From: a virus
Lineage: Duplodnaviria; Heunggongvirae; Uroviricota; Caudoviricetes
DNA: 64,000 bases
Virus record (IMG/VR): IMGVR_UViG_3300016476_000987
Strand: one strand, 5' to 3'
The translations under genes and the position numbers were made by a program. The notes below the pieces were generated by a model that did no database searches, was not told the origin of the DNA, and was given only the letters and a program-made list of their open reading frames with translations. Shown here piece after piece: positions 16,076 through 62,012 of this stretch (position 1 is the first letter of the stretch; the number at the start of each line of letters is the position of its first letter).

Positions 16076-16285
16076 ATGGACAAACATTTTGCTGTATTAG
16101 TAGATGTTCCTACAAAAGGAGAAATGATGTTGTTTCTTGGTTACTATGAAGATAATAAAGAGCAAATGGATGAAAGATATGAAGAGGTATCTATGGATCT
16201 TCCATTAACTCCTATCCTTGATAAATTGAAATCACACAAGTATAAATTGTTTAAACAAAAAGAAATAAATAATGATCAAGACTGA
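16076..16285 (+). CDS. hypothetical protein
   Basis: 69-aa acidic ORF between groES and groEL, overlapping the groEL start by 14 nt. Confidence 0.45.
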   Translation: MDKHFAVLVDVPTKGEMMLFLGYYEDNKEQMDERYEEVSMDLPLTPILDKLKSHKYKLFKQKEINNDQD

Positions 16286-43671: not shown

Positions 43672-44400
43672 ATGAACCCTCCCCCTAAGTATCCATTACT
43701 ATCAGATGATACTATCAATATAGTGATATGTGAAGATCATATTCTATACAGGCAAGGAATAAAATACACTCTGGATCAAAAGAATAATATACAAATTATC
43801 GGAGAAGCCGATAACGGAGTGTCTTTATTAAATCTACTAAAGCATGTGACTCCTAACATTATTATCCTGGATATTAACATGCCGGTAATGGATGGGGTAG
43901 CTGTGCTACCGGAAATAAAAAGACTGTACCCGGCCATAAAAGTACTGGTCCTTACTATGAATAATACTCCGGAAATGATAGAGATCATGATGTCTAAAGG
44001 AGCTGACGGGTATCTCACAAAGAATGATGATCCGGAAGTTATCTATACGGCCATCTTAGATTGCCATAAAGAAGGAAAATACATAGATAAGAGAACCCAG
44101 GACGTACTTATAAACACTGTTAGGAGAGTAGGAGGAGATCCTATTATAGATATCCCTAATAAAACTACTCAGCCTGCTAGATTTGACACCCCTATACCAG
44201 ACAAAGAACCTTGGTATAAAATGCCAACCAGAGCTACTCTAGTAGGCCTAGGAATAGCTTTTGCTGTGTTTATAGGTCTATACGCATATGAGAAGCTTAG
44301 GGTCAGTAATAAGCCTGTAAAGACGGTACAAGCTCCTCCTAGTTATCCACAAGATTATAACAATAATCGATATGGACTAGATACCATATTCTCTAAATAA
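43672..44400 (+). CDS. orphan response-regulator receiver (REC) domain protein with C-terminal TM anchor
   Basis: The CheY-like set is complete: acidic pair in ICEDH, phospho-acceptor in IIILDINMPVMDG, T in VLVLTMN, K in GADGYLTK. No output HTH is present. A TM helix ATLVGLGIAFAVFIGLYAY lies near the C-terminus. Confidence 0.75.
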   Translation: MNPPPKYPLLSDDTINIVICEDHILYRQGIKYTLDQKNNIQIIGEADNGVSLLNLLKHVTPNIIILDINMPVMDGVAVLPEIKRLYPAIKVLVLTMNNTPEMIEIMMSKGADGYLTKNDDPEVIYTAILDCHKEGKYIDKRTQDVLINTVRRVGGDPIIDIPNKTTQPARFDTPIPDKEPWYKMPTRATLVGLGIAFAVFIGLYAYEKLRVSNKPVKTVQAPPSYPQDYNNNRYGLDTIFSK

Positions 44401-49806: not shown

Positions 49807-50202
49807 ATGACAGACTCGAATAAAAGATATGGTCTCGGACATATGATAGGAGTTCGAGAAGGAGATGTAGGAGAAATAGTAGGAATGACGTTGGAAACTG
49901 TAACTGTTCGATATAAAGATCAAGAAGACACAACAGTTAGTTGGAATTCAATATACCCAGTTCCGGTATCGGTAGAAATGATGCAGAAGATCGGATTCTC
50001 TATAATAAAGAAACAAGATCTTCCGCATCATACCGAATACCTAATGGATATAAAAATCAATGGCAGGTTCTACTCTTCTAAAGGGATACTATTAAAAGAC
50101 AGATCTATATGGTCCTTTAATAATGTTTCCGCTAGGTTCATACACCAGATACAATCTTTAATTTGGATAATAGAACCTAGCATATCATTTAATCTATATT
50201 GA
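49807..50202 (+). CDS. hypothetical protein (last + strand gene)
   Basis: 131-aa ORF whose 3' end overlaps the 3' end of - strand gene 50189..50722 by 14 nt. Confidence 0.5.
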   Translation: MTDSNKRYGLGHMIGVREGDVGEIVGMTLETVTVRYKDQEDTTVSWNSIYPVPVSVEMMQKIGFSIIKKQDLPHHTEYLMDIKINGRFYSSKGILLKDRSIWSFNNVSARFIHQIQSLIWIIEPSISFNLY

Positions 50203-50722
50203 AGTAGTTAGCATCAAATAGATTAGAGTATACCTCATTAAGATCTTTTATATCTTTCATTAAGAAATTACCATTGTGAAACAGACCGGCCCTAATTAAA
50301 AAGTGTATCATTTTAACGTAGTCATCTTTAGTAGCCCAACCAAAATATTTAGCAGCTGTCTCTGCTACAGCTTCTATATTATTTCCTAAAGGGATCTTAT
50401 TAAGACTGAAAAAAGTCAAACACTTTTTTAGCCTGAACTCATTAGATAACACTCTCGGCTTCTTTCTTTTTCCAAAGCTTTTAGAAGCCAGATCAAAGTG
50501 AGTAAACAAGGGCCAGGTATAAGTGAAACAACTATCCGGAAGATATACCTCAGCCTTTACAAATACTTCCTGGAAGTTCTTAGTGTGGATCCTTGATACC
50601 TCTGCTCTGCCATAATATCCGTGATCGTATAAACATTCTTGAAACTCATGGGCAGTTCTTAAATTAGAAGTAAATACTAAACTGTTAATTGATATACTGT
50701 ACTCGTCACTTCTAGAATTCAT
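50189..50722 (-). CDS. hypothetical protein
   Basis: 177-aa ORF, terminal gene of the - strand block. Confidence 0.6.
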   Translation of the reverse strand: MNSRSDEYSISINSLVFTSNLRTAHEFQECLYDHGYYGRAEVSRIHTKNFQEVFVKAEVYLPDSCFTYTWPLFTHFDLASKSFGKRKKPRVLSNEFRLKKCLTFFSLNKIPLGNNIEAVAETAAKYFGWATKDDYVKMIHFLIRAGLFHNGNFLMKDIKDLNEVYSNLFDANYFNID

Positions 50723-50727
50723 AATAA

Positions 50728-51051
50728 TTAGTTTGCACAGATTTCGATAGCTTCTATAATACTGACATCAACTATAGACTTTTTAGGATTAAAACAAAAG
50801 TCTAGCTGTCTTTTTATAGCTGATACTCTTCTGTAGTCTTCTTCTTGTAAATAATAACATAGGCACACCCTGAGCCCAAACATAGTAGCATTAAGCAGCG
50901 TATTGTTAGTAATGCTAGCATTACCTATGAACATTAGCTCTTCGTAGTAATTAGCCATGTATTCTTCTAGATTCTCTTCTGACTCCCGCATCTTCTCTAC
51001 GATCTCAGCTATTTCCTCATCAGTGTACTTTGTGAAATTTTCCATAACCAT
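50728..51051 (-). CDS. hypothetical protein
   Basis: 107-aa ORF. Confidence 0.55.
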   Translation of the reverse strand: MVMENFTKYTDEEIAEIVEKMRESEENLEEYMANYYEELMFIGNASITNNTLLNATMFGLRVCLCYYLQEEDYRRVSAIKRQLDFCFNPKKSIVDVSIIEAIEICAN

Positions 51052-51058
51052 TGATTTG

Positions 51059-51436
51059 TTAAGTGAATAGATTTTCTGGTTTACTTCCTTTACTAATTAG
51101 ATCCTCTAGATTATTTATAACTCGTACATGATGCCGGAACATATCTAACTGTTCTTGAGAGATTTTCCAATCTTGCTCAATAACTTTTCTTAGTACGTCA
51201 CAGCACCTCTTTATCATTAGAGATTGAAACTGTTCTAAGGTACGATTACCTTTCATATTATTACAAGGCCTACATGCAAAAACTTTGTTATTTATTAGAG
51301 TGTTACCTTTAGATAAAGGCTCAAAGTGATCCCTGGTAATTAGTTCATAGGGAGTATTATCTTTGCAATAGAAACACTGGCTACCTTGTAATTTGTACTG
51401 CTCTTCTAGGGTTTCATTCTTTTTTCTTTTTATCAT
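51059..51436 (-). CDS. HNH endonuclease
   Basis: CFYCKD...RDHFEPLSKGNTLINNKVFACRPCNNMKGN. Start moved to MIKRKKN, 1 nt after the upstream stop. Confidence 0.8.
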   Translation of the reverse strand: MIKRKKNETLEEQYKLQGSQCFYCKDNTPYELITRDHFEPLSKGNTLINNKVFACRPCNNMKGNRTLEQFQSLMIKRCCDVLRKVIEQDWKISQEQLDMFRHHVRVINNLEDLISKGSKPENLFT

Positions 51437-51437
51437 A

Positions 51438-51806
51438 TTACATATCTGTATAAAGTTTTCTACCATTACTCCAGATAGTATCATAATCGTGATTGTCTAC
51501 TATCTCTCCATTAATAGTCCAATTAGGAAGGATCCTCGGATTGTATTTGATCTGATGCTTGTTAGTTACATCATTTTGTAACAAAGCTATACTAACTTTA
51601 TTACAAAGGACCCAAGCACATACTACCTTTTCTCCTCCATTATAAATCTTCTCAGCTGTCTTTTTATAGTTCTTTAATGTACAGCCGGTCATTACAAGAG
51701 AGTATTCTTCCGGATCGTAGTAGGCTATTCCTTCTTTAGATTCTACTTTCCACTTCATGTAGTTTGGTCCTCTACCTAAATGAAATCTAACTTTTGTTCT
51801 GGTCAT
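51438..51806 (-). CDS. hypothetical protein
   Basis: 122-aa ORF. Confidence 0.55.
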   Translation of the reverse strand: MTRTKVRFHLGRGPNYMKWKVESKEGIAYYDPEEYSLVMTGCTLKNYKKTAEKIYNGGEKVVCAWVLCNKVSIALLQNDVTNKHQIKYNPRILPNWTINGEIVDNHDYDTIWSNGRKLYTDM

Positions 51807-51816
51807 GGTATATGTA

Positions 51817-52101
51817 TTAAATCATTATGCTAATATCTGTATCATGAGTAGAAGGGTTCTCTTTTATAAGAAGCCCTTTATAATAATAAAGATCTCCGGA
51901 TCTTTCAAAGTCTTCCGGGTACTTTTCTAACCTTGCAAACAGTAAGATCATAGCGCTGCTCACTACAAAGTACTGAGGGTTTTTTCTTCTGTAGCTTTCC
52001 AACAAACTGTTTGCTGATTTAATAAAGTACTCTATGCTAACAGACTTTACAACATGGCCTGTTTTCCAGGAGTCTAAATTATTGTCTGATGTACCGTACA
52101 T
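51817..52101 (-). CDS. hypothetical protein
   Basis: 94-aa ORF. Confidence 0.5.
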   Translation of the reverse strand: MYGTSDNNLDSWKTGHVVKSVSIEYFIKSANSLLESYRRKNPQYFVVSSAMILLFARLEKYPEDFERSGDLYYYKGLLIKENPSTHDTDISIMI

Positions 52102-52114
52102 ACTCTTTACTTGA

Positions 52115-52408
52115 TTATTTATATTTTTCTAGATATTCCCACAGACCTTTTACGTCTTGGCATATAAGGTTACCATCCGAATCATGTGCAGTTATGTCCT
52201 CTCTTTTTCCATAGTCTCTATCGTAACAATACCAATTGAACATGTCCAGACCCTCCTCTCCGTAATATTCTTCTATTAGAGTAGAAATTACAAAGCGGTA
52301 TGGGTCTATAAATTCTATCAGGTCTACACTAAGTTCGTACAGTTTAGATGCAATCTCGTCCTGTTCTTTCAAAGTATTTACAATTGATTCAAAAGTTTCA
52401 AATTTCAT
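52115..52408 (-). CDS. hypothetical protein
   Basis: 97-aa acidic ORF. Confidence 0.5.
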   Translation of the reverse strand: MKFETFESIVNTLKEQDEIASKLYELSVDLIEFIDPYRFVISTLIEEYYGEEGLDMFNWYCYDRDYGKREDITAHDSDGNLICQDVKGLWEYLEKYK

Positions 52409-52599
52409 TTCTTAAAGTTTTTATTGTAAAAATCGTTTACACCACAAATCAATGCTGTAAATCCTTGACTAAAACAAAACAAAGTAACAATATGTCCTCT
52501 ATCGATCCTAGTAGTAGGTTGTCCGTCAAAATAAACGTATTGCACCATCAAGCAAAAAATAATTGCCGATATAATATGAACAGTTAATCCCTTATTCAT
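52405..52599 (-). CDS. small membrane protein
   Basis: 64 aa with two hydrophobic segments. ATGA-type overlaps with both neighbours. Confidence 0.5.
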   Translation of the reverse strand: MNKGLTVHIISAIIFCLMVQYVYFDGQPTTRIDRGHIVTLFCFSQGFTALICGVNDFYNKNFKK

Positions 52600-52853
52600 T
52601 TCTTATAGTTTTTATTGTAATATTCTTTAGCGTTTGAGTAGTCAACCACGACCAGTCCATTTTTGCCAAGAGCGTGCCCATCTGTCCAAGCCATGCAGAT
52701 GTTCTGCTCTTCTCTTTGTTTGGCTTCGTTTTTTAATTTGTAGACCAATTCGGTTAGAGGTTTATTGTCACACAACAGTTTGTGATTTAATATATTATTG
52801 TGCGCTAACATCTCAAAGAACCATTCAACTGCGGTCATGTTATTCTTTTCCAT
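52596..52853 (-). CDS. TAVEW-family small protein, copy 1
   Basis: MEKNNMTAVEWFFEML...NEAKQREEQ...AKEYYNKNYKK. Start placed at the ATG inside TATGGAAAAGAATAA, which overlaps the upstream stop by 14 nt. Confidence 0.6.
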   Translation of the reverse strand: MEKNNMTAVEWFFEMLAHNNILNHKLLCDNKPLTELVYKLKNEAKQREEQNICMAWTDGHALGKNGLVVVDYSNAKEYYNKNYKK

Positions 52854-53136
52854 AAGTGTCGTTGTAGTATTGTTTACCACTGCCATAATTCGGCTCATAC
52901 CCATCTAATGTACCTTGTTCGTAGGCTTTTTCTATTTGTTTGTTCTCTATCTGTTTGGCTTGATTTATCAAGGCATCTAAAACTTCCCAATTTATCTCAC
53001 AAACCTGCGGGTTTCCATAATCTTCTAACTCTTTAGCTAACCATTCAACTGCTGTCATGTTAATGTTTTTTGTAATGTTTTTTAGTTCATACTCTTTCAA
53101 TAAAGCCATCATGTAATTCTCTGCTGATTGTAGCAT
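52840..53136 (-). CDS. TAVEW-family small protein, copy 2
   Basis: ..NINMTAVEWLAKELE...NQAKQIENKQIEKAY...GKQYYNDTYGKE. Confidence 0.6.
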   Translation of the reverse strand: MLQSAENYMMALLKEYELKNITKNINMTAVEWLAKELEDYGNPQVCEINWEVLDALINQAKQIENKQIEKAYEQGTLDGYEPNYGSGKQYYNDTYGKE

Positions 53137-53150
53137 GTGTATGTGTGTTG

Positions 53151-53381
53151 TTATTTATCGAATGTTTCTTTGTAGTATTGTTCCCAAGACTCCCAGACAG
53201 GGGGCATACCGTCATCGAGTGATTGTCTTGATTGTTTAAATGTTTCTTCATGTTGCTCCTTCTCCATTTGTTTTGCCTGTTCAAATTCACCCCTTACTTT
53301 CATTAAATGATGCAAATCATGTGATGTACTTTCAATCCTTTCTATTAACCATTCAACTGCTGTCATGTTATTTTGTTCCAT
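53151..53381 (-). CDS. TAVEW-family small protein, copy 3
   Basis: MEQNNMTAVEWLIERIE...EQAKQMEKEQ...WEQYYKETFDK. Start lies inside TATGGAACAAAATAA, overlapping the upstream stop by 14 nt. Confidence 0.6.
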   Translation of the reverse strand: MEQNNMTAVEWLIERIESTSHDLHHLMKVRGEFEQAKQMEKEQHEETFKQSRQSLDDGMPPVWESWEQYYKETFDK

Positions 53382-53871
53382 ATGTTTCATTATAATATTG
53401 TTCTCCGTTTAAAAAATTTCCATTATCATCTAGAAATACGTTATCATAAGCATTCAATAGTTGCTTCTTCTCCATTTGTTTTGCCTGTTCAAGTAGCTCC
53501 GAATAGTTTGTTTTTCCTTCCACTACTGTTTGATTATAGTACCAATCAACAGCACTAATTAGTTCTGTAGAAGGTTCCTCCGGTTGATCTAAGGCATTAA
53601 AGAAGATCTGAGCATCTCTTTCAGAGAAAAACTCAATGCTGTTTTTAGAACTATTTTCTACCGGATAATCTTTATTAAAATCTAAAGAAGGAATATAAGC
53701 CATACCGTGTTTAACTTCATAACGTACAAAAGGGAAGGATAGTATCCTGGCTTCTATATTATCAAACTTTTTTGATAGCTCTTCTATCTGTTTAACATTA
53801 TCATCGTGAAGAACTAGATTAGATTCTACTTCCCATTGATCAAATACTTTTTTAATTATACCGTCTATCAT
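53368..53871 (-). CDS. two-part protein whose C-terminal half is a TAVEW-family module (copy 4)
   Basis: C-terminal half LISAVDWYYNQ...EQAKQMEKKQLLNAY...GEQYYNETYGTK. Confidence 0.6.
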   Translation of the reverse strand: MIDGIIKKVFDQWEVESNLVLHDDNVKQIEELSKKFDNIEARILSFPFVRYEVKHGMAYIPSLDFNKDYPVENSSKNSIEFFSERDAQIFFNALDQPEEPSTELISAVDWYYNQTVVEGKTNYSELLEQAKQMEKKQLLNAYDNVFLDDNGNFLNGEQYYNETYGTK

Positions 53872-53882
53872 AGTAGTCTATT

Positions 53883-54116
53883 TTACATTTTTTCAATCTC
53901 TGCTTTTACTTGAGTCCAATATGTCCAACTTGTCTCATAATCAGTATTCATACTGGTAATGTTCCGAATAATTTCATTCACGGCTATCAACGCACACTTC
54001 TTTGTATACGGGTTAGTATAAACCGGTATATCATCCCCTCCGGTATAGTTTGTCAAATACGAGATAGATATGCCCATGGCATCGAACAACTCTATTGCCT
54101 TGTCTCTTGGTGTCAT
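53883..54116 (-). CDS. hypothetical protein, paralog of 59610..59837
   Basis: Shared pattern KAxELFD...ALIAVxEII...YWxQVKxEIE. Confidence 0.55.
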   Translation of the reverse strand: MTPRDKAIELFDAMGISISYLTNYTGGDDIPVYTNPYTKKCALIAVNEIIRNITSMNTDYETSWTYWTQVKAEIEKM

Positions 54117-54403
54117 TACTTTAATCTTTTTATGTGTCTTTTGATCCAGTAGGTTCTGGGTTTTAGTTTACCTACTGGGAAATAATAGAATTCTGAATTT
54201 TTAGGTGTCTTGTATTTTTCTATTAGGTTGGCCCATGAGAAGTAGTCTGGTGGATTATTATCGATATATTTGAGTAGTAAGTCTCCTTCCTCTTCTGTAA
54301 TTAGATCTTTATATACTAATCCATAGGTCCACCAACACATTCCTGTTTTGAACAGTTGTTTGTTATTGAGCATTATCTCTAGTAGTTCTTTGGTCGATCT
54401 CAT
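54116..54403 (-). CDS. hypothetical protein
   Basis: Start moved to MRSTKELLEIML (ATGA overlap with the upstream membrane-protein gene). The track start at 54493 would overlap that gene by 94 nt. Confidence 0.5.
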   Translation of the reverse strand: MRSTKELLEIMLNNKQLFKTGMCWWTYGLVYKDLITEEEGDLLLKYIDNNPPDYFSWANLIEKYKTPKNSEFYYFPVGKLKPRTYWIKRHIKRLK

Positions 54404-54600
54404 GGAAGATATTTTGTAATTAGGTGAATGATTGTTGGTATTAATATAGATACTAGTATTATCGATAGTAATACAAAGATCATACTTTGCCAAAAAGGTA
54501 TATTGTTATGAAATGGATCAAATGTTCCTTCTGATAACTTTTTTATTCTGAAGTATAATATTATCTTTCCTAGGATTAGTAGTACTGTTAGTGATATCAT
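54400..54600 (-). CDS. small two-TM membrane protein
   Basis: MISLTVLLILGKIILYF and MIFVLLSIILVSILIPTII. Confidence 0.5.
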   Translation of the reverse strand: MISLTVLLILGKIILYFRIKKLSEGTFDPFHNNIPFWQSMIFVLLSIILVSILIPTIIHLITKYLP

Positions 54601-54920
54601 TGTTTAGGTTTTATTGTTTTAAATAAATTATCGATTTTTCTATGTCCATGTGACCACCTCCACACTCTACCCATACCTTGAATATGGTATTTGGATAAGA
54701 AGCTAAGCGGTATATGTTTAGATATAAATTTAAAATCCCAAGGATTGTGAAAAGAAATAATGTCCTTATTAAAAGGATTTAATTCAAAGTTGCCATCTCT
54801 CTTATCAAGATATTCTTCGACATCTTCTTCTGTTATAAAGGAACCATAGACAGTAAATAAAGATAGTTCAATCATTCCTATTAATGTAATTATAAAGCCT
54901 AAGATTTCTATTGTATTCAT
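54597..54920 (-). CDS. membrane-anchored hypothetical protein
   Basis: N-terminal TM ILGFIITLIGMIELSLFTVYG. Confidence 0.5.
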   Translation of the reverse strand: MNTIEILGFIITLIGMIELSLFTVYGSFITEEDVEEYLDKRDGNFELNPFNKDIISFHNPWDFKFISKHIPLSFLSKYHIQGMGRVWRWSHGHRKIDNLFKTIKPKQ

Positions 54921-55438
54921 GACTTGAGTTTTAGTTTACCATTAACGAATTCAACTTCCCACTCTGTTTTGGGTTGGAGAGCTTGAATAATTTCCTCAAT
55001 AGAATGCTCTTGATGATGTCTTGCCTCATACAAAGCCCATTGCATATCTTCCTCTGTATATTTCTTCTCCTTATTGTCTTCAAGAGCTTGGTTATAACCT
55101 TTTCTAACTCCATTTTCAAAATCATAATTTCCACCAACATATAATTCTAACCCCATTTTTAATGATAATTCTTCAACTTTATTCACCTCACCAATAAGTT
55201 CTTTCACTTCTGATAATAGAAGAGGCAGTACTGATTGCATCCAACCGGTACCTAAGGATTCTGGTTGTGTTGAACAGATGATCTTCTTCTGTCTTAGTTT
55301 ATCTATATCATTCAGGGTGTGGATTGTAAACAAATCATACTTACCTGTCAGTAACCTCTCTGCTACTATATCTCCGATATTAATTTCTGAATCATCTGCC
55401 ACTATATAGTGGTCCTCAGACAGTTTTATTAGTGTCAT
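54917..55438 (-). CDS. hypothetical protein
   Basis: 173-aa ORF. Confidence 0.55.
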   Translation of the reverse strand: MTLIKLSEDHYIVADDSEINIGDIVAERLLTGKYDLFTIHTLNDIDKLRQKKIICSTQPESLGTGWMQSVLPLLLSEVKELIGEVNKVEELSLKMGLELYVGGNYDFENGVRKGYNQALEDNKEKKYTEEDMQWALYEARHHQEHSIEEIIQALQPKTEWEVEFVNGKLKLKS

Positions 55439-55452
55439 TGTTCTGATTGTAA

Positions 55453-55651
55453 TTAATCTTGCTCATTATATTTAATACCATCACCTTCTACAAGCACATC
55501 ATCTGCTATTTTAGACAGTAAATCAGGAGCATAAATGATGGCATTATCACTTTGCATTATGCATTCCCCAACTCCATATACTTCAAAGTATTTTGTAAGC
55601 ATTTCTATTGCTTTGTCTTTTTTTTTCTTCTGTCCAAGTAATTGTGTACAT
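55453..55651 (-). other. two short out-of-frame ORFs joined by an A9 tract (frameshifted gene, slippage site, or a 49-aa gene starting at 55602)
   Basis: The ATG at 55651 opens a 22-codon frame that runs through GAAG-A9-GAC. The other frame reads ..KDKAIEMLTKYFEVYGVGECIMQSDN...KYNEQD and stops at 55453. An A8 tract would fuse the two frames. Confidence 0.4.
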
Positions 55652-55666
55652 AGTTGTTTAATTTAA

Positions 55667-55969
55667 TTAGTCTTTTACAGGTTCCCAATATGTTTCAGTA
55701 ATTACCCTCTCTCTTTTCTCCACTCTTGTTAATTCTTGTATTTCATTTTTATCCCAATCAAATTCTGACCAAATATATGGATTGGTCTCCCAATAACCAT
55801 CGAGTTCTCTTGGTACTTCTGGACACCACCTTTCATTTATTGTTACAATAGAACTCATATAGAATGTCGATCCTTTACGATGCTCTTGCTTGCTTGTTTC
55901 CATATCCTCCAAAAGAATGTCAAAATCAAAACCTATTTCTTTTGCTGTCTGTCTTGTAATCTTGTTCAT
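55667..55969 (-). CDS. hypothetical protein
   Basis: 100-aa ORF. Confidence 0.55.
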   Translation of the reverse strand: MNKITRQTAKEIGFDFDILLEDMETSKQEHRKGSTFYMSSIVTINERWCPEVPRELDGYWETNPYIWSEFDWDKNEIQELTRVEKRERVITETYWEPVKD

Positions 55970-56005
55970 TTGTTTATTTTTTACTGGTTTGTGATACTAT
56001 TAGTA

Positions 56006-56191
56006 TCAATAATATTTGTCAATCCAATCTGCTGTTATTGTAAGAAAATTTACTAAAACAGTTGCTGGAAGCCACCAAATAAGATATAGAAAAATAAGCC
56101 AATAGTTGTCTTTATATATTGACAGTCCAATTGGAAATAACCAAATAAGAATCATCAACAAAAGAATAAGTAGTAGGATTAGTTTTTTCAT
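56006..56191 (-). CDS. small membrane protein
   Basis: 61 aa, almost entirely hydrophobic (LILLLILLLMILIWLFPIGL...). Confidence 0.5.
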   Translation of the reverse strand: MKKLILLLILLLMILIWLFPIGLSIYKDNYWLIFLYLIWWLPATVLVNFLTITADWIDKYY

Positions 56192-56457
56192 TGCTTTGCT
56201 TTTAGAAATTCTTGGAATAGTGTTTTACCTGAATATTCACTTAACCCAAAGTTATTTGTCCAATTTCCTGAGTTCAATTTGAGAAATTCTGCATTCCCAA
56301 GCCATTCAGCAAACTCAATAGCAATTTGTTCTGTAACTTTTTCTGATTCCATCGCAGCAGAATTAATGCCTGATAAGTATGGATATCCATTATCAGGGTA
56401 ATCTAGATAAATTGTAGAATTCATAATATCACGATGCATTTCATGTATTTTACTCAT
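56188..56457 (-). CDS. hypothetical protein
   Basis: 89-aa ORF with an ATGA overlap. Confidence 0.5.
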   Translation of the reverse strand: MSKIHEMHRDIMNSTIYLDYPDNGYPYLSGINSAAMESEKVTEQIAIEFAEWLGNAEFLKLNSGNWTNNFGLSEYSGKTLFQEFLKAKQ

Positions 56458-56722
56458 TGTTTTGTTTTTCTTGTTTTATTATATTAGCTGTGTATTCGTT
56501 GAGTTGTTCTGGTGTAAATACAAATACTTCTTGTGGTTTAAGCCAATAAGCGACTTGAGCTAATATTTGATGCTCATCTTCACATTGAAATTCATCATCA
56601 TCAATTTTATAAATATTTCCTACAAGTAAATCATTTGAAATATTTATACATATAACCTCTTTTTCAGGCAATTCATCTTCTACTTTTACAGGTAAATAAA
56701 CTGTTTGTTTAGTAGGTGTCAT
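56450..56722 (-). CDS. DUF551-like small protein
   Basis: DELPEKE...VAYWLKPQE, resembling the DUF551 pattern (..THWMPLPxPP). Confidence 0.45.
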   Translation of the reverse strand: MTPTKQTVYLPVKVEDELPEKEVICINISNDLLVGNIYKIDDDEFQCEDEHQILAQVAYWLKPQEVFVFTPEQLNEYTANIIKQEKQNNE

Positions 56723-56970
56723 AGCTCAGAAAGTTTTTGTTCAAGTATTATTATTTGTTGTTTTATTTTATTGCCAAGTAAATCACCATTAGGTTGTTCA
56801 ATTACTTTTAATAAACCAATAGCAAATTGTAGTTTTTGTTTTTCAATCCAATTACTTGTTGCTCCTGCTATAAACCCTTCATTGAACGCTAAATATTTTT
56901 CACCCAATGGTTTACCATAATACGCATATCCATTAGCTTTTTCTGCTTCTAATTCAAGTTCTTTGTTCAT
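56719..56970 (-). CDS. hypothetical protein
   Basis: 83-aa ORF. Confidence 0.5.
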   Translation of the reverse strand: MNKELELEAEKANGYAYYGKPLGEKYLAFNEGFIAGATSNWIEKQKLQFAIGLLKVIEQPNGDLLGNKIKQQIIILEQKLSEL

Positions 56971-57286
56971 TGTTATACCAAATTAAAAATTGATTAATTG
57001 CTTCTACTACTGCTTCTTTTGCAGATTTACCTAACAGAGCTTGTACTTCTCTTTTTAAAGTAGAATGTGTTGTATCTCCTCCTTGTTTTGGATTTTGAGT
57101 TTTATTAATAGCCTCAACTACTTCCATTATCCAGTTCCAATCTGAATGGAATTTTAAATCAATAGATTCTACAAAAGAATATTGACGAAGCATGTCTTCA
57201 TTCCATCTATCTTTTTCTTCACTATATTTCCAACCTAAAAACTCAGCACATCTTTTATTATATTCAAGTGTTTCTTGTTCTGTCAT
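56954..57286 (-). CDS. phage ABA-sandwich-domain-like protein
   Basis: CAEFLGWKY...LKFHSDWNWIMEVVEAI matches, from memory, the FHSxWxWLMPVVEKI hallmark. Confidence 0.5.
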   Translation of the reverse strand: MTEQETLEYNKRCAEFLGWKYSEEKDRWNEDMLRQYSFVESIDLKFHSDWNWIMEVVEAINKTQNPKQGGDTTHSTLKREVQALLGKSAKEAVVEAINQFLIWYNNEQRT

Positions 57287-57289
57287 AAT

Positions 57290-57487
57290 TCACCTTTTAA
57301 AAAGTTTGACAAAGAATTTTAGCATATACTTTATTAGAATAAGAACCCAGAAAATACCATAAAACAACCAATCGTAAAAATTATCTATTTCAGGTATGGC
57401 ATCTTCTATGCCAAATGCAAGTGCTGTTATACCTAATACTGAAAGTGTAACTATAAAGTAAATTAATAATATTGTTTCTATTGTCAT
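57290..57487 (-). CDS. small two-TM membrane protein
   Basis: ILLIYFIVTLSVLGITALAF and FYGIFWVLILIKYML. Confidence 0.5.
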   Translation of the reverse strand: MTIETILLIYFIVTLSVLGITALAFGIEDAIPEIDNFYDWLFYGIFWVLILIKYMLKFFVKLFKR

Positions 57488-57490
57488 ACA

Positions 57491-58018
57491 TCAAGTTTTA
57501 AGTTTGTTTGGTTCTTCACTTGGAATGATTATTTTGTATTTTATATTTTCATGTGTGGGTATAAAATTACCTACTCTCATAAAACATCCTTTTTTACAAC
57601 TATAACCTCTTTTTACAATTTCTCCACATTCTCTACATTTTTGAGAGTAGTCTTCTTCTTTAATATCAACCTCTTTACAACTTGGATTCTTAACAAACCA
57701 TTCAAGGAATGTATCATCAATGGGTTGAACACCATCAACGATAAGTTGAAGGTCTGTTGTTAGAATTACTTTTTTCCAAAATTCATCAAATTCGTGACTG
57801 CAATTAAAAATAAGATTTTCATCTGCTTTCACAATATTTCCATTTTCATAAATTACCCAATCTCCTTCTTTAATTTCTGAATCATGAGTGATGTAGATGT
57901 GTTGGTTGATTCTACCCAAAGGAATTTCAATCCATTTGTTATTAAAACCTAAATTTCCATTAATGTCTTTAAATAAACTACTTGGTTTGTCTGTTGAAGT
58001 AACGTGTATATTTTTCAT
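57491..58018 (-). CDS. hypothetical protein with C-terminal Cys cluster
   Basis: CRECGEIVKRGYSCKKGC. Confidence 0.55.
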   Translation of the reverse strand: MKNIHVTSTDKPSSLFKDINGNLGFNNKWIEIPLGRINQHIYITHDSEIKEGDWVIYENGNIVKADENLIFNCSHEFDEFWKKVILTTDLQLIVDGVQPIDDTFLEWFVKNPSCKEVDIKEEDYSQKCRECGEIVKRGYSCKKGCFMRVGNFIPTHENIKYKIIIPSEEPNKLKT

Positions 58019-58296
58019 ATATCAAGTTTTAAGTTTGAGATGTATTCATTTTTATCTCCATCGTATTTATTTTCTATGTTTACATTAAAGCAAAACACGC
58101 CTCCAGCATCAAAAGCCTTTTCAATCTCAGGAATTAATGGTGTTGATTGAGATAGGATTTGTTTTAAAGAATTGATTTTACCTAAGTATAAAATGTCGTA
58201 GAAATCATCTTTTAGCTCTAGTAACCTTTCTTTTTCCAACTCTTCTATTCTTTTTTGAATAGCTGTCTTATTGACAATTATGTACTCGTTATTCAT
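58015..58296 (-). CDS. hypothetical protein
   Basis: 93-aa ORF. Confidence 0.5.
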   Translation of the reverse strand: MNNEYIIVNKTAIQKRIEELEKERLLELKDDFYDILYLGKINSLKQILSQSTPLIPEIEKAFDAGGVFCFNVNIENKYDGDKNEYISNLKLDI

Positions 58297-58639
58297 TCTC
58301 TTTATTTATTTTGTCTAAGTCTTCTAAGTCTTCCTTCAATCTTCTTAAGAAACTATCGTCTCCATCATCACCACTCAATAACCAGTCAATCCTATGAGCA
58401 TATATCTCAGCCATACGAAGTATCTTTACTGCCTCTTTGAACTTCTCAATAACTTCATTGGGGTATTCGTAATGATATAACTCGTCTGGATACTTCTCAT
58501 ACCAATCCGGTAAATTCCAAGACTCTTCTTTTAGTTCTTCGGCAGTCTTCTTCCTACCATTCTTTTCTATATGATACTCTATATCATCAGCAATGTCCCC
58601 TATCTTGTATTGGTTATAGTCAAATCTTCCTCCCGACAT
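58289..58639 (-). CDS. hypothetical protein
   Basis: 116-aa ORF starting MSGGRFDYNQYKIGDIADDIE. Confidence 0.55.
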   Translation of the reverse strand: MSGGRFDYNQYKIGDIADDIEYHIEKNGRKKTAEELKEESWNLPDWYEKYPDELYHYEYPNEVIEKFKEAVKILRMAEIYAHRIDWLLSGDDGDDSFLRRLKEDLEDLDKINKENE

Positions 58640-58653
58640 AGCAACCTCCTTTT

Positions 58654-58938
58654 TTAGTTATTTAATAATTTAGTATAAGTTTCGTTGTAGTATTGTTCGG
58701 CATCCTCAAACGCTTTTGTTGTGCATCCGTATGTTTTATTGTTCAAACATCTGTTGTGGACATGCGACATTATTATCTGCTCCTTCTCCATTTGTTTGGA
58801 TTTTTGAACCGTCTCTCTGATTTCATCCCACCTATGTAATGGTATTTCACCTATCAATTCCGTACTTAATTTTCTTACCAACCATTCTACTGCCGTTATA
58901 GATTTATCGGAATTTCCGATTTTTTTTTGCTGTGCCAT
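58654..58938 (-). CDS. TAVEW-family small protein, copy 5 (MAQQ start)
   Basis: MAQQKK...SITAVEWLVRKL...QKSKQMEKEQ...AEQYYNETYTK. Confidence 0.6.
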   Translation of the reverse strand: MAQQKKIGNSDKSITAVEWLVRKLSTELIGEIPLHRWDEIRETVQKSKQMEKEQIIMSHVHNRCLNNKTYGCTTKAFEDAEQYYNETYTKLLNN

Positions 58939-58942
58939 GTGT
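58926..58942 (-). repeat. start-codon box copy 5 (coding strand ACACATGGCACAGCAAA)
   Basis: + strand tttgctgtgccatgtgt; the ATG is the start of 58654..58938. Confidence 0.9.
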
Positions 58943-58953
58943 CAAATTTTAAT

Positions 58954-59145
58954 TTAATCTAAAAGGGGACATATCCAAATTGGGCAAATAATTAGCCAAC
59001 ACATAAACCTTTCTTGCAGGCTAACGGCTAAATTATCTTGACCAATTTCTCTGCAATCTTTTTTCCAAATAAAATAGAATGGGATAAAAAAAACAAATTG
59101 CAATGATATACATATTATATATGCTACTATTGTTTGCTGTGCCAT
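58954..59145 (-). CDS. small membrane protein (MAQQ start)
   Basis: MAQQTIVAYIICISLQFVFFIPFYFIW... Confidence 0.55.
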   Translation of the reverse strand: MAQQTIVAYIICISLQFVFFIPFYFIWKKDCREIGQDNLAVSLQERFMCWLIICPIWICPLLD

Positions 59146-59149
59146 GTTA
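59133..59149 (-). repeat. start-codon box copy 4 (TAACATGGCACAGCAAA)
   Basis: + strand tttgctgtgccatgtta; the ATG is the start of 58954..59145. Confidence 0.9.
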
Positions 59150-59386
59150 TTTGTTTAATATTTGATCTCTCATCCATTTAGCACCGTATAAAAAAGATAC
59201 TCTTTCCTTAGGCCAGTCTGAAAATCCAAAAGATTTTTCTTCTATCTCCTCATCACTTGGTAGTTTAACTGGTCTAACATATTCATCGATGTATTCCATA
59301 ATATGTTTAGCATCAATCATAGACACCTCGCATCTCTCCGCTGCATGTAAAAACATTTCTTTTGTGTATAGTTTTTGCTGTGCCAT
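59147..59386 (-). CDS. hypothetical protein (MAQQ start)
   Basis: 79-aa ORF starting MAQQKLYTKEMF. Confidence 0.55.
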   Translation of the reverse strand: MAQQKLYTKEMFLHAAERCEVSMIDAKHIMEYIDEYVRPVKLPSDEEIEEKSFGFSDWPKERVSFLYGAKWMRDQILNK

Positions 59387-59390
59387 GTGT
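59374..59390 (-). repeat. start-codon box copy 3 (ACACATGGCACAGCAAA)
   Basis: + strand tttgctgtgccatgtgt; the ATG is the start of 59147..59386. Confidence 0.9.
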
Positions 59391-59393
59391 TAT

Positions 59394-59606
59394 TTAATTT
59401 ATTGGTTCGTCAGGAAGTGTTGTCCAATGGGTTACATCATCTAAAAAATTTTCAGATGATTCACTATAAAATCCTTTAACATCATCGTAATATTCAGCCA
59501 CTAACCAACGACTGTTTTTTGGAAAACTTTTTGGTGCGTAAACTAAAAAACTTCCATGTTCAACGTTTGGTAATTTTTCTTTCACACTAAATATTTGTTG
59601 TGCCAT
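59394..59606 (-). CDS. DUF551-like small protein (MAQQ start)
   Basis: MAQQIFSVKEKLP...VTHWTTLPDEP. Confidence 0.55.
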   Translation of the reverse strand: MAQQIFSVKEKLPNVEHGSFLVYAPKSFPKNSRWLVAEYYDDVKGFYSESSENFLDDVTHWTTLPDEPIN

Positions 59607-59610
59607 GTGT
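59594..59610 (-). repeat. start-codon box copy 2 (ACACATGGCACAACAAA)
   Basis: + strand tttgttgtgccatgtgt; the ATG is the start of 59394..59606. Confidence 0.9.
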
Positions 59611-59837
59611 TACAATATTTCTATCTCTTGTTTAACTTGTCTCCAATAATCAATCAAATCCAATAGTATATTACCTCTCACATCCACATCTCTAATATCC
59701 ATACTTAGAGTGTTAATTATCTCATCCACAGCTATTAATGCATAATTTTTAGTTCTGTCAACATACCATTGACTTCCTGCAATTTGATACTTATCAAATA
59801 ACTCTTTTGCTTTTTCTTTAGGTGTTTGCTGTGCCAT
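59610..59837 (-). CDS. hypothetical protein (MAQQ start), paralog of 53883..54116
   Basis: MAQQTPKEKAKELFD...ALIAVDEII...YWRQVKQEIEIL. Confidence 0.55.
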   Translation of the reverse strand: MAQQTPKEKAKELFDKYQIAGSQWYVDRTKNYALIAVDEIINTLSMDIRDVDVRGNILLDLIDYWRQVKQEIEIL

Positions 59838-59841
59838 ATGT
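59825..59841 (-). repeat. start-codon box copy 1 (ACATATGGCACAGCAAA)
   Basis: + strand tttgctgtgccatatgt; the ATG is the start of 59610..59837. Confidence 0.9.
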
Positions 59842-59903
59842 TTGTTTTTATCGCCTATTCATGGAATAATTTACAATTATCGCCTTAGAATATTACAGGT
59901 ATA

Positions 59904-59939
59904 AAACCGGACTCCATATAAAGTTATGAAGTCCGGTTT
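59904..59939 (-). terminator. intrinsic terminator after the DUF932-like gene
   Basis: A 10-bp stem AAACCGGACT / AGTCCGGTTT with a 16-nt loop. Read on the - strand, ACCGGACT..AGTCCGGT is followed by TTTTAT. It lies 14 nt downstream of the 59953 stop. Confidence 0.6.
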
Positions 59940-59952
59940 AAATTATAAAATC

Positions 59953-60936
59953 TTACTTAACCATTTCCAAAGCAAGATCAAAGGCTTTGCTGATCTTAGC
60001 AGCAGCCGTACCATAGTTAAGGTCTTTCATCCTCTGCTCAGCATTCTTATAGTCTTTGATGTGAGTATAATATCCGGAGATAGAATTATAAGCTCCCCAC
60101 AAAGTCTTATAAGCCGCCTCTGTTCTCTGAGTAGAATGAGTCATTGCAAAGTCAAAGACGGTGTCTGTAGTATTCTTAAGCTTAGTAGACAGCTCTTTAG
60201 CCTCAGCGCTTACAACTTCTCTTTCAACTTTCATGGCATTAGTAATAAACTCTTTGAACTCAAAGTCAGACAGTCTCTTCTGACTCATTCGATCAAAGAT
60301 AGTATTCACCTCTGTCATATACTTAGAAGCGATTCCCATGACCCTAGAAGCCTCTTTTAGCTTGCTTTCAGCAGATGCTGTGTGAGAGATGCTGACCTTA
60401 TTATCAAGGCCCTTAAGAGCTGCCTGGAGGGTGTTATTACACACTACTCGAATGGATGTAAACCCTGCAATAATAGTGGTAGATCCATCGTGAGAGTTAG
60501 TAAGAATAATATACTTCTCTACCTTTTCCCCATGGACCAACATATCTTCCGGAAGTTTGGCAGTAACGAAGATCTTCTCTCCGAGTCCCAAAGCACCGGC
60601 AGTCTCGAAGATAGCCTCACCCTGATCAATGATAGAGTCAAAGAAACCAAAAGCATCTTGATTCTGTACGATAGTGTACCTACCTTTAACAATTCCGAGA
60701 GGACTTCCGGTATCAGTCCTAACAGTAGAGAAGTGACCAGGAACCTCAACCAATCCTTTAGAAGGATCGTTTACATACAGAGGTCTTTTCTCTACTCTAT
60801 AGTCAAGACCACCGAGTCGGATAGCCTCCTCAGCTGTCATTGCTTTGTCAACATACTGGCCAAGACCATGCCATGCTTTTTCTCCTTTAGCTACGAAAGA
60901 CCATTTGTCGTTTGAGAAATTCAGATTGTGAGCCAT
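59953..60936 (-). CDS. DUF932 / phage-plasmid TIGR03299-like protein
   Basis: MAHNLNF...KAWHGLGQYVDKAMTAEEAIRLGGLDYRVEKRPLYV matches the family's N-terminal signature as I remember it. Confidence 0.7.
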   Translation of the reverse strand: MAHNLNFSNDKWSFVAKGEKAWHGLGQYVDKAMTAEEAIRLGGLDYRVEKRPLYVNDPSKGLVEVPGHFSTVRTDTGSPLGIVKGRYTIVQNQDAFGFFDSIIDQGEAIFETAGALGLGEKIFVTAKLPEDMLVHGEKVEKYIILTNSHDGSTTIIAGFTSIRVVCNNTLQAALKGLDNKVSISHTASAESKLKEASRVMGIASKYMTEVNTIFDRMSQKRLSDFEFKEFITNAMKVEREVVSAEAKELSTKLKNTTDTVFDFAMTHSTQRTEAAYKTLWGAYNSISGYYTHIKDYKNAEQRMKDLNYGTAAAKISKAFDLALEMVK

Positions 60937-60962
60937 AACTGTTTGATTTTAAATGTTGTTTT

Positions 60963-61226
60963 TTATTTTTTACTAGGCAATGCTTCAATATCAGCTAACG
61001 TCTTTTCTACATCTTTTGTACTCAGATACCCTAGTACATCACTAGTAACAGGAGTATCATATGTTATATTGCCTCCATCAAGTACAGCAATCTCATACAA
61101 TCCTTCTGGGCCTCCATAACTAAATGGGTGGCATATAATGGAAGCTCCATATCCATTAGGAAATACTACGATTGCTTGCACTCCTCCATGCCGCTCAAGC
61201 TTAAATACTAAATCATCAAATTTCAT
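60963..61226 (-). CDS. hypothetical protein
   Basis: 87-aa ORF (..FPNGYGASIICHPFSYGGPEGLYEIAV..). Confidence 0.55.
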   Translation of the reverse strand: MKFDDLVFKLERHGGVQAIVVFPNGYGASIICHPFSYGGPEGLYEIAVLDGGNITYDTPVTSDVLGYLSTKDVEKTLADIEALPSKK

Positions 61227-61255
61227 ATCTCTTATTTTTACAAATATATGAATTA

Positions 61256-61969
61256 TTATTTCTTTTTAGAGTATCCTCTGATACCTTTTTTTCTAAGATT
61301 TGATAGAGCTTGGGAGGCTTCTGACCCGCTCTTCTGTGTGCCATGAATAAGGAGAGCAAAGCTTTCTCCTTTATTATAGGCATAACTGTCATCGTGATCA
61401 ATCTCCAACTGTAGGTTTGTAGCTTCTTCTTCGGTGAAGACGACCCTAGCATTCTTTAAGTTATTGAGAGTCACTACTTTATCTCCTGCTCCTCCCATTG
61501 AAGCAGTCAATTCAAAATTACCTGGGATAGAATCCTTTCTAGCCAGCCAGTAGTTTACGCTTTTCGTATAGGCATAAAATTTAATATGTTTAAAATTCGT
61601 TGCTACCTCCATCCAAGCATCAAAGTAATCTTGATTAAAGAAGTCCCCTGATACATGCACTCTAACTATCTGTGCTTTCTTAGGAAGGCTTTCCATAATC
61701 AAGTTACGCATACCTTCCTTTGTTTTCCTGGCCCGTAACAGATCGTAATTCTTCCACCTGGATGCTCTAGTGGAAGCATACAACGCTTCTGCTGAGGCTG
61801 AGAAACACCTGAACTTTTGGAATCTACCGTCTGTTATCTTACCGGTATGTCGATCTGCTGATGCTTGACACTCGTAAGCAAAGGGACAACTGTGTCCTGC
61901 CGGTAAAGAGAAGGTAAGAATCTTCTTCTCTAGCTTAGCGTTTCCTTTCTGGAATCTTAGTTTTTCCAT
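61256..61969 (-). CDS. GP88-family-like protein
   Basis: FQKGNAKLEKKILTFSLPAGHSCPFAYEC resembles the GP88 N-terminal pattern (GNxKL..FSLPA..TCP.A..C). Confidence 0.55.
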   Translation of the reverse strand: MEKLRFQKGNAKLEKKILTFSLPAGHSCPFAYECQASADRHTGKITDGRFQKFRCFSASAEALYASTRASRWKNYDLLRARKTKEGMRNLIMESLPKKAQIVRVHVSGDFFNQDYFDAWMEVATNFKHIKFYAYTKSVNYWLARKDSIPGNFELTASMGGAGDKVVTLNNLKNARVVFTEEEATNLQLEIDHDDSYAYNKGESFALLIHGTQKSGSEASQALSNLRKKGIRGYSKKK

Positions 61970-62012
61970 CTATTTGTTTTTACTTGTTTACCAATGTGGA
62001 AGCTCAAGTGTG

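Follow-up and report, generated by a model that had tools for sequence, protein, structure and literature searches.

Five copies of a small-protein module in the virus window

We analysed a 64,000-nucleotide stretch of DNA (hereafter the window; 35% G+C) from the Caudoviricetes virus record IMGVR_UViG_3300016476_000987, which is part of a contig of 183,965 bp and contains five genes for small proteins that share a module of about 75 amino acids (aa). An earlier note, made from the sequence alone, had described a module of about 70 aa that is common to four adjacent genes and a more distant fifth, with a shared motif pattern and a variable middle. Both the five genes, all of which are located on the minus strand, and the motif pattern were borne out by a MAFFT alignment and by exclusive matches to a hidden Markov model (HMM). 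The HMM, which was built from the five modules, matched exactly five of the 862 six-frame open reading frames (ORFs) in the window (E 7e-38 to 2.5e-26), while the next-best match had an E-value of 2.7. The middle is variable, but there is not one centre. Instead, three conserved anchors, A1 (TAVEWL), A2 (QAKQMEKEQ) and A3 (EQYYNETY), frame two variable cassettes, here called V1 and V2. The copies and their anchors are as follows:

52596..52853, minus strand: c1, 85 aa from MEKNN, in an ORF that reaches 52904; A1 52818-52835 (TAVEWF), A2 52701-52727 (EAKQREEQN, the most diverged A2), A3 52605-52628 (KEYYNKNY)
52840..53136, minus strand: c2, 98 aa including a 26-aa N-terminal extension; A1 53038-53055, A2 52936-52962 (QAKQIENKQ), A3 52852-52875 (KQYYNDTY)
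53151..53381, minus strand: c3, 76 aa (71 aa from MTAVEW in the database gene call, P0001); A1 53346-53363, A2 53253-53279 (QAKQMEKEQ), A3 53160-53183 (EQYYKETF)
53368..53871, minus strand: c4, 167 aa, with the module in the C-terminal 72 residues (53371-53586); A1 53539-53556 (SAVDWY), A2 53461-53487 (QAKQMEKKQ), A3 53380-53403 (EQYYNETY)
53587-53871, minus strand: N-terminal segment of c4, about 95 aa, unrelated to the module and fused to it
58654..58938, minus strand: c5, 94 aa, 4.8 kb away from the array; A1 58879-58896, A2 58777-58803 (KSKQMEKEQ), A3 58675-58698 (EQYYNETY)

The pairwise identity of the five copies is only 24-37% in the MAFFT alignment, and the cassettes outside the anchors are mutually unrelated. 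By isoelectric point, three of the copies are acidic (4.4-4.9) and the other two close to neutral (7.8), and neither a signal peptide nor membrane character is evident in the sequences of the five copies. Among the protein and locus sequences compared, the N-terminal part of c4 is present only in the window and in L092, a related contig described below. An alignment of 84 single-module members of the family showed that T-A-V-E-W in A1, A-K-x-x-E-x-x-Q in A2 and E-x-Y-Y-N-E-T in A3 are nearly invariant, while the rest of the module varies in both sequence and length.

Predicted fold, size and distribution of the family

The AlphaFold2 model of c3 consists of four helices and has a mean predicted local distance difference test score (pLDDT) of 84.6; the corresponding score for c5 is 79.6. 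The order of the helices is the same in both models despite the unrelated cassettes, and the predicted fold is a small helical bundle. A1 lies in helix 1, A2 in the long central helix and A3 in the last helix. The V2 cassette of c5 (58699-58776) and those of the relatives P0058 and P0070 keep the pattern H-x-H-N-R-C ... Y-x-C, which is maybe a metal-binding site and suggests that the chemistry differs between cassettes.

The profile of the five modules matched at least 6,915 proteins in a word-indexed collection, none of which contains a Pfam domain. When 1.84 billion representative sequences were searched exhaustively with HMMER, the number of clusters (50% identity) was 7,933 at a threshold of E<=1e-3 and 1,678 at E<=1e-10. 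None of the five copies had a match above the cut-off in Pfam-A, PHROGs v4, NCBIfam 20 or PADLOC-DB 2. When the 84 members were scanned singly, no consistent family emerged, the best being DUF3983 in 10 of the 84, in all cases with E>=0.0098. There was neither sequence nor fold similarity of the family to any chain in the PDB, no homology was found to known defence or anti-defence families, including Acr proteins and DNA mimics of the Ocr/ArdA type, and the longer family members contain no informative fused domain, only tandem modules or other segments without a recognised domain. No family member was identified by tblastn searches with the consensus, P0034 and c2 against 50,697 GenBank phage records, and a nucleotide search with positions 50000-62000 against the GenBank phages gave only one chance-like match of 47 nucleotides (nt). 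A literature search with the motif strings found no paper. The five genes thus belong to a family of small (about 70-100 aa) helical phage proteins that is very large and unannotated.

A search with one peptide pattern in 185,579 prokaryotes, with one genome per species, identified eight loci, all in metagenome-assembled genomes and mostly in freshwater Bacteroidota (Sediminibacterium, Emticicia, Flavobacterium and Chitinophagia). One of these is a prophage-like locus on a 214-kb Chitinophagia contig, located between a DNA methyltransferase and a terminase.

Independent assortment of the V1 and V2 cassettes

To compare the cassettes, we cut out V1 and V2 by HMM position from 217 distinct modules, corresponding to 23,436 pairs. 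The correlation between V1 identity and V2 identity was r = 0.05. V1 was shared at >=60% identity in 363 pairs, and V2 was shared too in only 22 of these, while it was less than 30% identical in 257. The reverse comparison, with V2 shared and V1 below 30% identity, gave 252 pairs. The top 120 protein hits are biased toward the cassettes of the window, and the test was therefore repeated on 100 modules from loci that were retrieved by the anchor pattern only. The correlation in this set was r = 0.014, and >=60% identity was observed for V1 in 8 pairs, for V2 in 15 pairs and for both in a single pair. V1 and V2 types are thus paired almost at random across the phages.

Clustering at 55% identity sorted the cassettes into 144 V1 types and 129 V2 types, such that each cassette comes in well over a hundred discrete and internally conserved types. 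The most common V1 type, which is c5-like (24 modules), was paired with 18 V2 types, and the most common V2 type, which is c3-like (19 modules), was paired with 17 V1 types. The V1 type of c2 was represented by 13 modules, and the V1 and V2 types of c1 by 6 and 13 modules elsewhere, respectively. The cassettes in the window are much closer to those of other phages than to each other, and several proteins combine them in new ways. For example, P0003 consists of the N-terminal half of c2 and the C-terminal half of c3, and P0007 contains the V1 of c2 with a c1-like V2. Similarly, the V1 of c5 is joined to other V2 cassettes in P0015, P0074 and P0081, and the V2 of c5 to other V1 cassettes in P0058 and P0070.

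Changes in identity at the anchors in related phages

We identified 12 pairs of modules from different loci that share a cassette with at least 80% nucleotide identity, of which seven share one cassette only and five share both. The identity changes in or directly beside A2 in all seven half-sharing pairs. The pair L056 and L079 agrees at 56/57 nt of V1 but has unrelated V2 cassettes; L053 and L008 have 97% identical V2 and unrelated V1 cassettes; and c5 resembles L001 in V1 (84% nucleotide identity) but not in V2, which is unrelated. The V1 of c2 recurs in L092 and L093 with 91-95% nucleotide identity, where it is combined with other V2 cassettes. High-identity sharing of cassettes between phages thus ends within an anchor or next to one.

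Of the relatives found, the contig L092 (3.6 kb) is the closest; it is syntenic with positions 56013-52062 of the window at 79-84% nucleotide identity. The order of the genes in the window is the 77-aa gene, c4, c3, c2, c1 and the 64-aa gene, while the order in L092 is a 78-aa gene, c4', one chimeric gene, c1' and the 64-aa gene. A three-way alignment showed that the chimeric gene is c2-like, including the N-terminal extension, up to GCCAAACAAATAGA inside A2, then c3-like through V2, and then again of the c2 type inside A3 (TATGGAAAATAATAACATGAC). The alignment and the gene order show that a single cassette was exchanged between two anchors and that L092 lacks one gene. The other relative, L093, contains the V1 of c2 (91% nucleotide identity), a c1-like V2 and the tail of c5 along with the downstream neighbour of c5. 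Recombination or gene conversion at the joints is thus directly visible in related phages. Taken together, we consider it probable that this is a family of three anchors and two cassettes that is recombined at the anchors by phage recombinases and that may serve as a set of specificity-variable binders.

Anchors as conserved nucleotide strings

To examine the anchors at the nucleotide level, codons were counted in 127 modules from the loci, and the frequency of each codon in the anchors was compared with that in the V regions of the family itself:

Ala37, GCC: 81/117 (69%) in the anchor, 11% in the V regions, p = 4e-51
Glu41, GAG: 67% in the anchor, 19% in the V regions
Lys42, AAG: 65% in the anchor, 18% in the V regions
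Glu43, GAG: 83/92 (90%) in the anchor, 19% in the V regions, p = 2e-49
Gln44, CAG: 85/112 (76%) in the anchor, 11% in the V regions, p = 1e-56
Tyr71, TAC: 77% in the anchor, 20% in the V regions
Tyr72, TAC: 99/115 (86%) in the anchor, 20% in the V regions, p = 4e-52
Asn73, AAC: 81% in the anchor, 23% in the V regions

The binomial p-values range from 1e-28 to 1e-56, and are somewhat overstated on account of the relatedness of the sequences. The opposite choice is fixed at further anchor positions, such as Glu74, which is GAA in 92/93 cases (99%), and Ala6, which is GCA in 98/116 cases (84%) and GCT in only 3%. Glutamic acid is encoded by GAA at positions 39, 69 and 74, but by GAG at positions 41 and 43. 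Because the same amino acid is tied to different codons depending on its position, codon preference and selection for translational accuracy are excluded. We also considered GC-biased conversion, since the nine codons that go against the bias all end with G or C, and rejected it, as neighbouring anchor codons are fixed in A-ending forms to an even greater extent than in the background. The anchor is a fixed string rather than the product of drift at third codon positions, and the anchors are conserved as nucleotides, including synonymous positions that go against the codon bias of the family.

Within cassette types, synonymous codon identity was 0.67-0.71 at 70-90% amino acid identity, as compared to 0.54-0.60 between unrelated cassettes. 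The cassette types are thus old and under purifying selection, because the amino acids have been kept while the synonymous sites are near saturation. The undecayed silent sites in the anchors reflect one of two processes, either selection on the nucleotide sequence or homogenisation by frequent exchange.

It is unlikely that the anchors are kept solely as a folding core and as translation signals in the segment from A3 over the stop and start codons to A1, with recombination being incidental and the nucleotide conservation unrelated to exchange. The near-invariant tryptophan, the two tyrosines and the A-K-x-x-E motif fit a structural core, and both the overlapping stop and start codons at eight junctions (see below) and an AT-rich context that fits leader-poor initiation point in the same direction. 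However, A2 is located in the middle of the gene, far from any start, yet has the strongest anti-bias codons (GCC, GAG, AAG, GAG and CAG). Folding cannot explain the split between GAA and GAG for glutamic acid, and anchor conservation is just as high where a locus holds a single copy and the neighbours are unrelated.

Copy number and genomic context

The module occurs in one copy in 53 of the 84 sources (83 loci and the window), and in two, three, four and five copies in 24, 4, 1 and 2 sources, respectively. Two to five copies are thus present in 31/84 sources, and for 22 of the 38 neighbouring copies on the same strand the distance from A3 to the next A1 is at most 50 nt. The presence, number and position of the copies differ even between close relatives. 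Tight tandem arrays are recurrent in the family, with a copy number that varies between close relatives.

The array in the window is located in a 12-kb leftward block of small genes without database matches (about 50.2-62 kb), which is divergent from rightward genes for replication and nucleotide metabolism. The proteins in the window include a family A DNA polymerase, a GroEL-type chaperonin, a thymidylate synthase, a ribonucleotide reductase-like protein, DUF932 and Gp88, and the proteins for replication and recombination a gp32-like single-stranded DNA-binding protein, a RecA/UvsX-like protein, a 5'-3' exonuclease, DnaB and a PD-(D/E)XK nuclease. The window also contains four tRNAs. In smaller relatives, the module genes are located downstream of genes for a putative exonuclease (30 loci), Erf (28 loci) and NinG (15 loci); ERF lies within 4 kb in 28/94 loci and NinG in 15, with a Pfam E-value for Erf of 1.5e-38. 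They are also located about 2.5 kb upstream of a gene for a putative terminase large subunit, which was named from its sequence (25 loci). The setting in the smaller relatives is a nin-like accessory region.

This setting, with the genes placed downstream of the exonuclease, Erf or primase and upstream of the terminase, and with the same placement in the prophage-like Chitinophagia locus, would suit a protein with an ordinary accessory or regulatory role in the replication-recombination region, such as a cofactor of recombination or replication, the loops of which drift neutrally and the copy number of which is non-adaptive. We consider this improbable, since neutral drift does not give discrete types at 70-98% amino acid identity that are freely re-paired. 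Furthermore, genomes often carry two to five copies with different cassettes, and the placement itself varies between close relatives, as do presence and number.

Junction DNA, overlaps and start codons

The array is also characterised by repeated DNA at the gene junctions, for which the relevant features are:

53346..53403, minus strand: composite junction block c4/c3, with A3 of c4, the stop, the start and A1 of c3 (GAACAATATTATAATGAAACATATGGAACAAAATAACATGACAGCAGTTGAATGGTTA)
52818..52875, minus strand: composite junction block c2/c1, with the same architecture as the c4/c3 block
52404..52437, minus strand: A3-like tail (DFYNKNFKK and stop) on an unrelated 64-aa hydrophobic gene (52405-52599), directly downstream of c1

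There are three occurrences of the 23-mer AACATGACAGCAGTTGAATGGTT, each with no more than one mismatch (52819-52841, 53039-53061 and 53347-53369), while none was expected from 100 shuffles, in agreement with the claim of three near-exact copies of one string. A repeat search further identified a block of 56 nt with 86% identity between the c2/c1 and c4/c3 junctions and a block of 33 nt with 97% identity in the A2 motifs of c3 and c4, and the similarity of the DNA at the joints exceeds chance by far. Both junction strings, ...TATGGAAAAGAATAACATGACC and ...TATGGAACAAAATAACATGACA, are present, with a chance expectation of none.

The architecture proposed in the earlier note, in which the ATG of the next gene lies 14 nt inside the previous gene, is thus present at two junctions, but the choice of start codon is ambiguous. 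Another ATG (MTAVEW...) is located 1 nt past the upstream stop and is used by the database gene call for c3, while the sequence M-E-x-N-N-M-TAVEW is retained in several homologues. The overlapping start (MEKNN) is therefore plausible but not certain. The overlap TATGGAAAATAA was found at eight junctions, in L015 (twice), L020, L082, L086, L092 and the window (twice), where TAT GGA AAA TAA (Tyr-Gly-Lys-stop) is read as ATG GAA AAT (Met-Glu-Asn) for the next gene. Because one overlap is used at eight junctions in several loci, the junction architecture is a property of the whole family and not of the window alone. The conserved block of about 55 nt from A3 over the stop and start codons to A1 is well suited to unequal crossing-over.

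The tail of the 64-aa gene is a sixth, partial trace of the module in the array, as judged from the 34 nt at 52404-52437, which are 88% identical to the end of c1 (52595-52628), and the tail is kept in the orthologue in L092 (3085-3279). The idea that the anchor has spread to unrelated genes was rejected, since an A3-like C-terminus is limited, outside the family, to the 64-aa gene, its orthologue in L092 and one ORF of 47 aa. We also observed that A2 (..QMEKEQ) resembles the MEKNN and MEQNN gene starts of c1 and c3. In addition, there are fused relatives of two kinds (P0063, P0066, P0107 and others; P0006, P0014, P0020, P0045): half a module (A1-V1-A2) followed directly by a full module that starts with "MENKQTAVQW", and two full modules within one ORF.

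The earlier note had taken the array to suggest recent duplication or gene conversion and diversification. Part of this stands, in that the array is paralogous and head-to-tail, the DNA at the joints is similar beyond chance and recombination or gene conversion at the joints is visible in relatives. A recent tandem duplication in place, with fast divergence of the centres and gene conversion within the genome keeping the ends alike, would account for the head-to-tail order, the junction DNA (86% over 56 nt), the 23-mer with 0-1 mismatch and the 33 nt at 97% in A2 of c3 and c4. However, this explanation is largely refuted and very improbable, as the copies are no more than 24-37% identical with mutually unrelated cassettes, each of which has closer relatives in other phages, and as the cassette types are old, purified and re-paired in other genomes. 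Targeted hypermutation of the variable segments would explain the sharp contrast between these and the invariant flanks but has a negligible probability, and its retroelement type, such as a diversity-generating retroelement, is excluded by the kind of variation, since the cassettes differ by indels, length and whole-segment replacement and form discrete, amino acid-conserved types rather than adenine-specific scatter, and by the window itself, with no reverse transcriptase among the 40 larger ORFs scanned in the 64 kb and no template/variable repeat pair in 52400-59200.

Independent assortment, breakpoints at the anchors, old and purified cassette types and position-fixed anchor codons therefore point to combinatorial reshuffling of cassettes at conserved nucleotide joints as the origin of the array, and not to recent duplication in place.

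Neighbouring genes and other features of the window

A second family of small proteins is encoded on the minus strand at 53883-54116 (77 aa) and 59610-59837 (75 aa), with 36% identity (E 2e-9). Across 18 loci it is a frequent companion of the module, with a module gene no more than 300 nt away in 17/22 cases. No Pfam match was obtained for the 77-aa protein, the one copy that was scanned. Five consecutive genes on the minus strand, 58654-58938, 58954-59145, 59147-59386, 59394-59606 and 59610-59837, start with MAQQ (ATGGCACA(G/A)CAA, preceded by (A)ACAC), and four of these are unrelated to the module family; 0.29 matches to the string were expected from shuffles. The start MAQQTAVEW is present in many family members elsewhere, and non-family genes starting with MAQQ were found only in this phage among the retrieved loci. 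The common MAQQ start may be an element for translation initiation or a further recombination joint.

A gene for a free-standing HNH endonuclease (51059-51484, minus strand) lies downstream of the array at a distance of about 1.1 kb, and a gene for an endonuclease with the NUMOD3 motif (14515-15279, plus strand) directly follows the DNA polymerase gene. Homing endonucleases could contribute local double-strand breaks and gene conversion. A perfect Shine-Dalgarno-like sequence, AAAGGAGGT, is located 5 nt before the ATG of gene 58289-58639 (58640-58660, minus strand), and the A2 anchor contains AAGGAG. Bacteroidota mostly do not use Shine-Dalgarno sites, and the relatives of the family point to Bacteroidota hosts. 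The intergenic region at 59838-59952 (minus strand), after the DUF932 gene, contains a hairpin, AAACCGGACT ... AGTCCGGTTT, followed by AGGCGATAA, which occurs twice at a distance of 29 nt just upstream of the first MAQQ gene. This 9-mer is present nowhere else in the window, and the region may represent a terminator plus a promoter or operator. Scans of the module region as a whole were at chance level, with 56 sigma-70 promoter-like sites (56.3 expected) and 9 terminator-like sites (5.7 expected).

The thymidylate synthase gene (41476-42651, plus strand) encodes a protein of 391 aa, residues 7-389 of which match the whole Pfam profile of 266 positions, indicating about 120 inserted residues. 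Other genes on the plus strand encode a GroEL-type chaperonin (16272-17945), a GDP-mannose 4,6-dehydratase (21023-21991) along with several glycosyltransferases, a WYL-domain protein (28746-29534) and a response-regulator receiver (43672-44400). A 26-nt repeat had indicated paralogy of 54917-55438 and 57491-58018, which was not supported (E = 1.8).

Proposed mechanism and function

We infer that the mechanism is homologous recombination at the anchors by phage recombinases. The anchors would serve as patches of homology for the phage recombination proteins, which may be the UvsX/RecA-like and gp32-like proteins here and Erf in many relatives. Crossovers or conversion tracts in A2 and A3 would swap single cassettes, while crossovers in the A3-A1 junction would add, delete or move whole genes. 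Through constant exchange the anchors would stay uniform, with the cassette types surviving as old alleles, and the array would be put together and dealt anew from a large, existing pool of cassettes. At the protein level, the anchors may build a constant three-helix scaffold on which V1 and V2 provide the specificity surfaces. A single phage would thereby carry a panel of differently specified binders against variable targets in the host or in rival phages, for defence or take-over, expressed from the accessory small-gene region. The specificity-variable binder in the conflict between phage and host is our best guess on the function and the least certain part of the proposal.

Several observations weigh against recombination at the anchors as the origin of a set of binders. 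Only one four-gamete square was present in the cassette sample, and the codon identity of the anchors between unrelated modules (0.57-0.70) is only modestly above the chance level given the strong AT bias; the anchor signal lies in which codon is preferred. The synonymous conservation could also reflect another constraint on the nucleic acid, such as translation start or coupling at A3-A1, or a binding site. Random recombination followed by survival of products that are in frame and foldable would also result in breakpoints at the anchors. Furthermore, the relatives are all metagenomic assemblies, and chimeras such as the one in the single contig L092 could be mis-assemblies, although the anchors of c2 and c3 share too little exact sequence for this and the pattern recurs in many independent samples. 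Finally, a putative role as binder or in anti-defence, the latter also suggested in the earlier note, is drawn only from the variation pattern, the small size, the multi-copy state and the genomic position, and the predicted arrangement with anchors in the core and cassettes facing outward is a weaker part of the proposal.

Comparison with known systems

The gp38 adhesins of the T2/T6 type consist of glycine-rich motifs that separate hypervariable segments (Tetart et al. 1998; Trojet et al. 2011, PMC3157838). The conserved motifs are thought to form a structural core, while the hypervariable segments carry the specificity and exchanges occur at the motifs (PMC3157838). The module resembles gp38 in the way it works, since its conserved motifs are likewise interspersed with hypervariable segments and are the sites of exchange. 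However, the anchors of the module are not glycine-rich, and there is no relation in sequence or fold. The module genes are located among small genes of an early type rather than among tail genes, and the product is not a virion adhesin. Moreover, the module is an all-helical protein of about 75 aa in 1-5 tandem copies with two cassettes, as compared to the four loops of gp38.

In the hyperplastic regions of T4-type phages, small ORFs are shuffled as modules by means of promoter-early stem-loop (PeSL) cassettes (Arbiol et al. 2010, PMC2839356; PMC4122927). Similar to these, the module genes are small, non-essential genes flanked by short conserved DNA repeats in a large virulent phage with T4-like recombination genes, and recombination inserts, deletes or replaces genes. 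The PeSLs are intergenic units of a promoter and a terminator, whereas the repeats of the module are coding and correspond to the ends and the middle of the protein, because of which shuffling also takes place inside the module gene. The chance-level outcome of the promoter and terminator scans is another difference. The module family thus works like the shuffling of gp38 and PeSL but is not a member of either, since there is no relation in sequence or fold, the product is not a virion protein, and the repeats are coding rather than promoter-terminator units.

According to the modular theory of Botstein, mosaics arise at conserved "linker" sequences, and relaxed homologous recombination is carried out by Rad52-like recombinases of phages (De Paepe et al. 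2014, PMC3945230). Erf-type recombinases work efficiently on short and diverged homology (PMC3945230). The mosaic joints of the module are likewise located at short, imperfect homologies, and recombinases of the Erf family are encoded next to many family members. The exchanged units in lambdoid phages are whole genes or blocks, whereas the joints of the module are in-frame motifs of 18-27 nt inside one family of small proteins. These linkers, in contrast, also carry position-specific synonymous conservation.

The internal-protein loci of T-even phages contain tandem, polymorphic small genes that share an N-terminal capsid-targeting sequence, and at least one of the internal proteins, IPI* of T4, has an anti-restriction role. 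The module genes are similarly tandem, highly polymorphic and small, their products share a short sequence at the N-terminus, and they occur in a large virulent phage. However, the module is conserved at three sites and not only at the N-terminus, and we found no evidence of packaging or of a prohead-protease motif.

Implications

What is new here is an undescribed protein family, while the phenomenon itself is of a known kind. The family of about 8,000 clusters has a clear and unusual architecture but no database name and no cultured phage carrier, and is known only from uncultured phages. A further-reaching possibility, albeit a doubtful one, is that the anchors are maintained as nucleotide sequences in their role as recombination joints, and that the family has evolved as a population-wide device for combinatorial diversification that supplies a constantly changing set of small binders to the phages of freshwater Bacteroidota. 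If so, on the order of 100 or more V1 types and as many V2 types would be re-dealt by homologous recombination onto an unchanging scaffold of three helices, with host defences or rival phages as the targets, and the family would be a recombination-based functional counterpart of diversity-generating retroelements or of antigenic-variation cassettes.

Intragenic shuffling at short joints has a quantitative footprint in this family, in the form of independent assortment, mapped breakpoints and position-specific synonymous conservation. It thereby bears on the old question of whether phage mosaicism arises by homologous "linkers" or by random joining followed by selection. The proteins are candidates for screens for anti-defence and host take-over functions in phages of the Bacteroidota, and the module may represent a natural scaffold for small binders.

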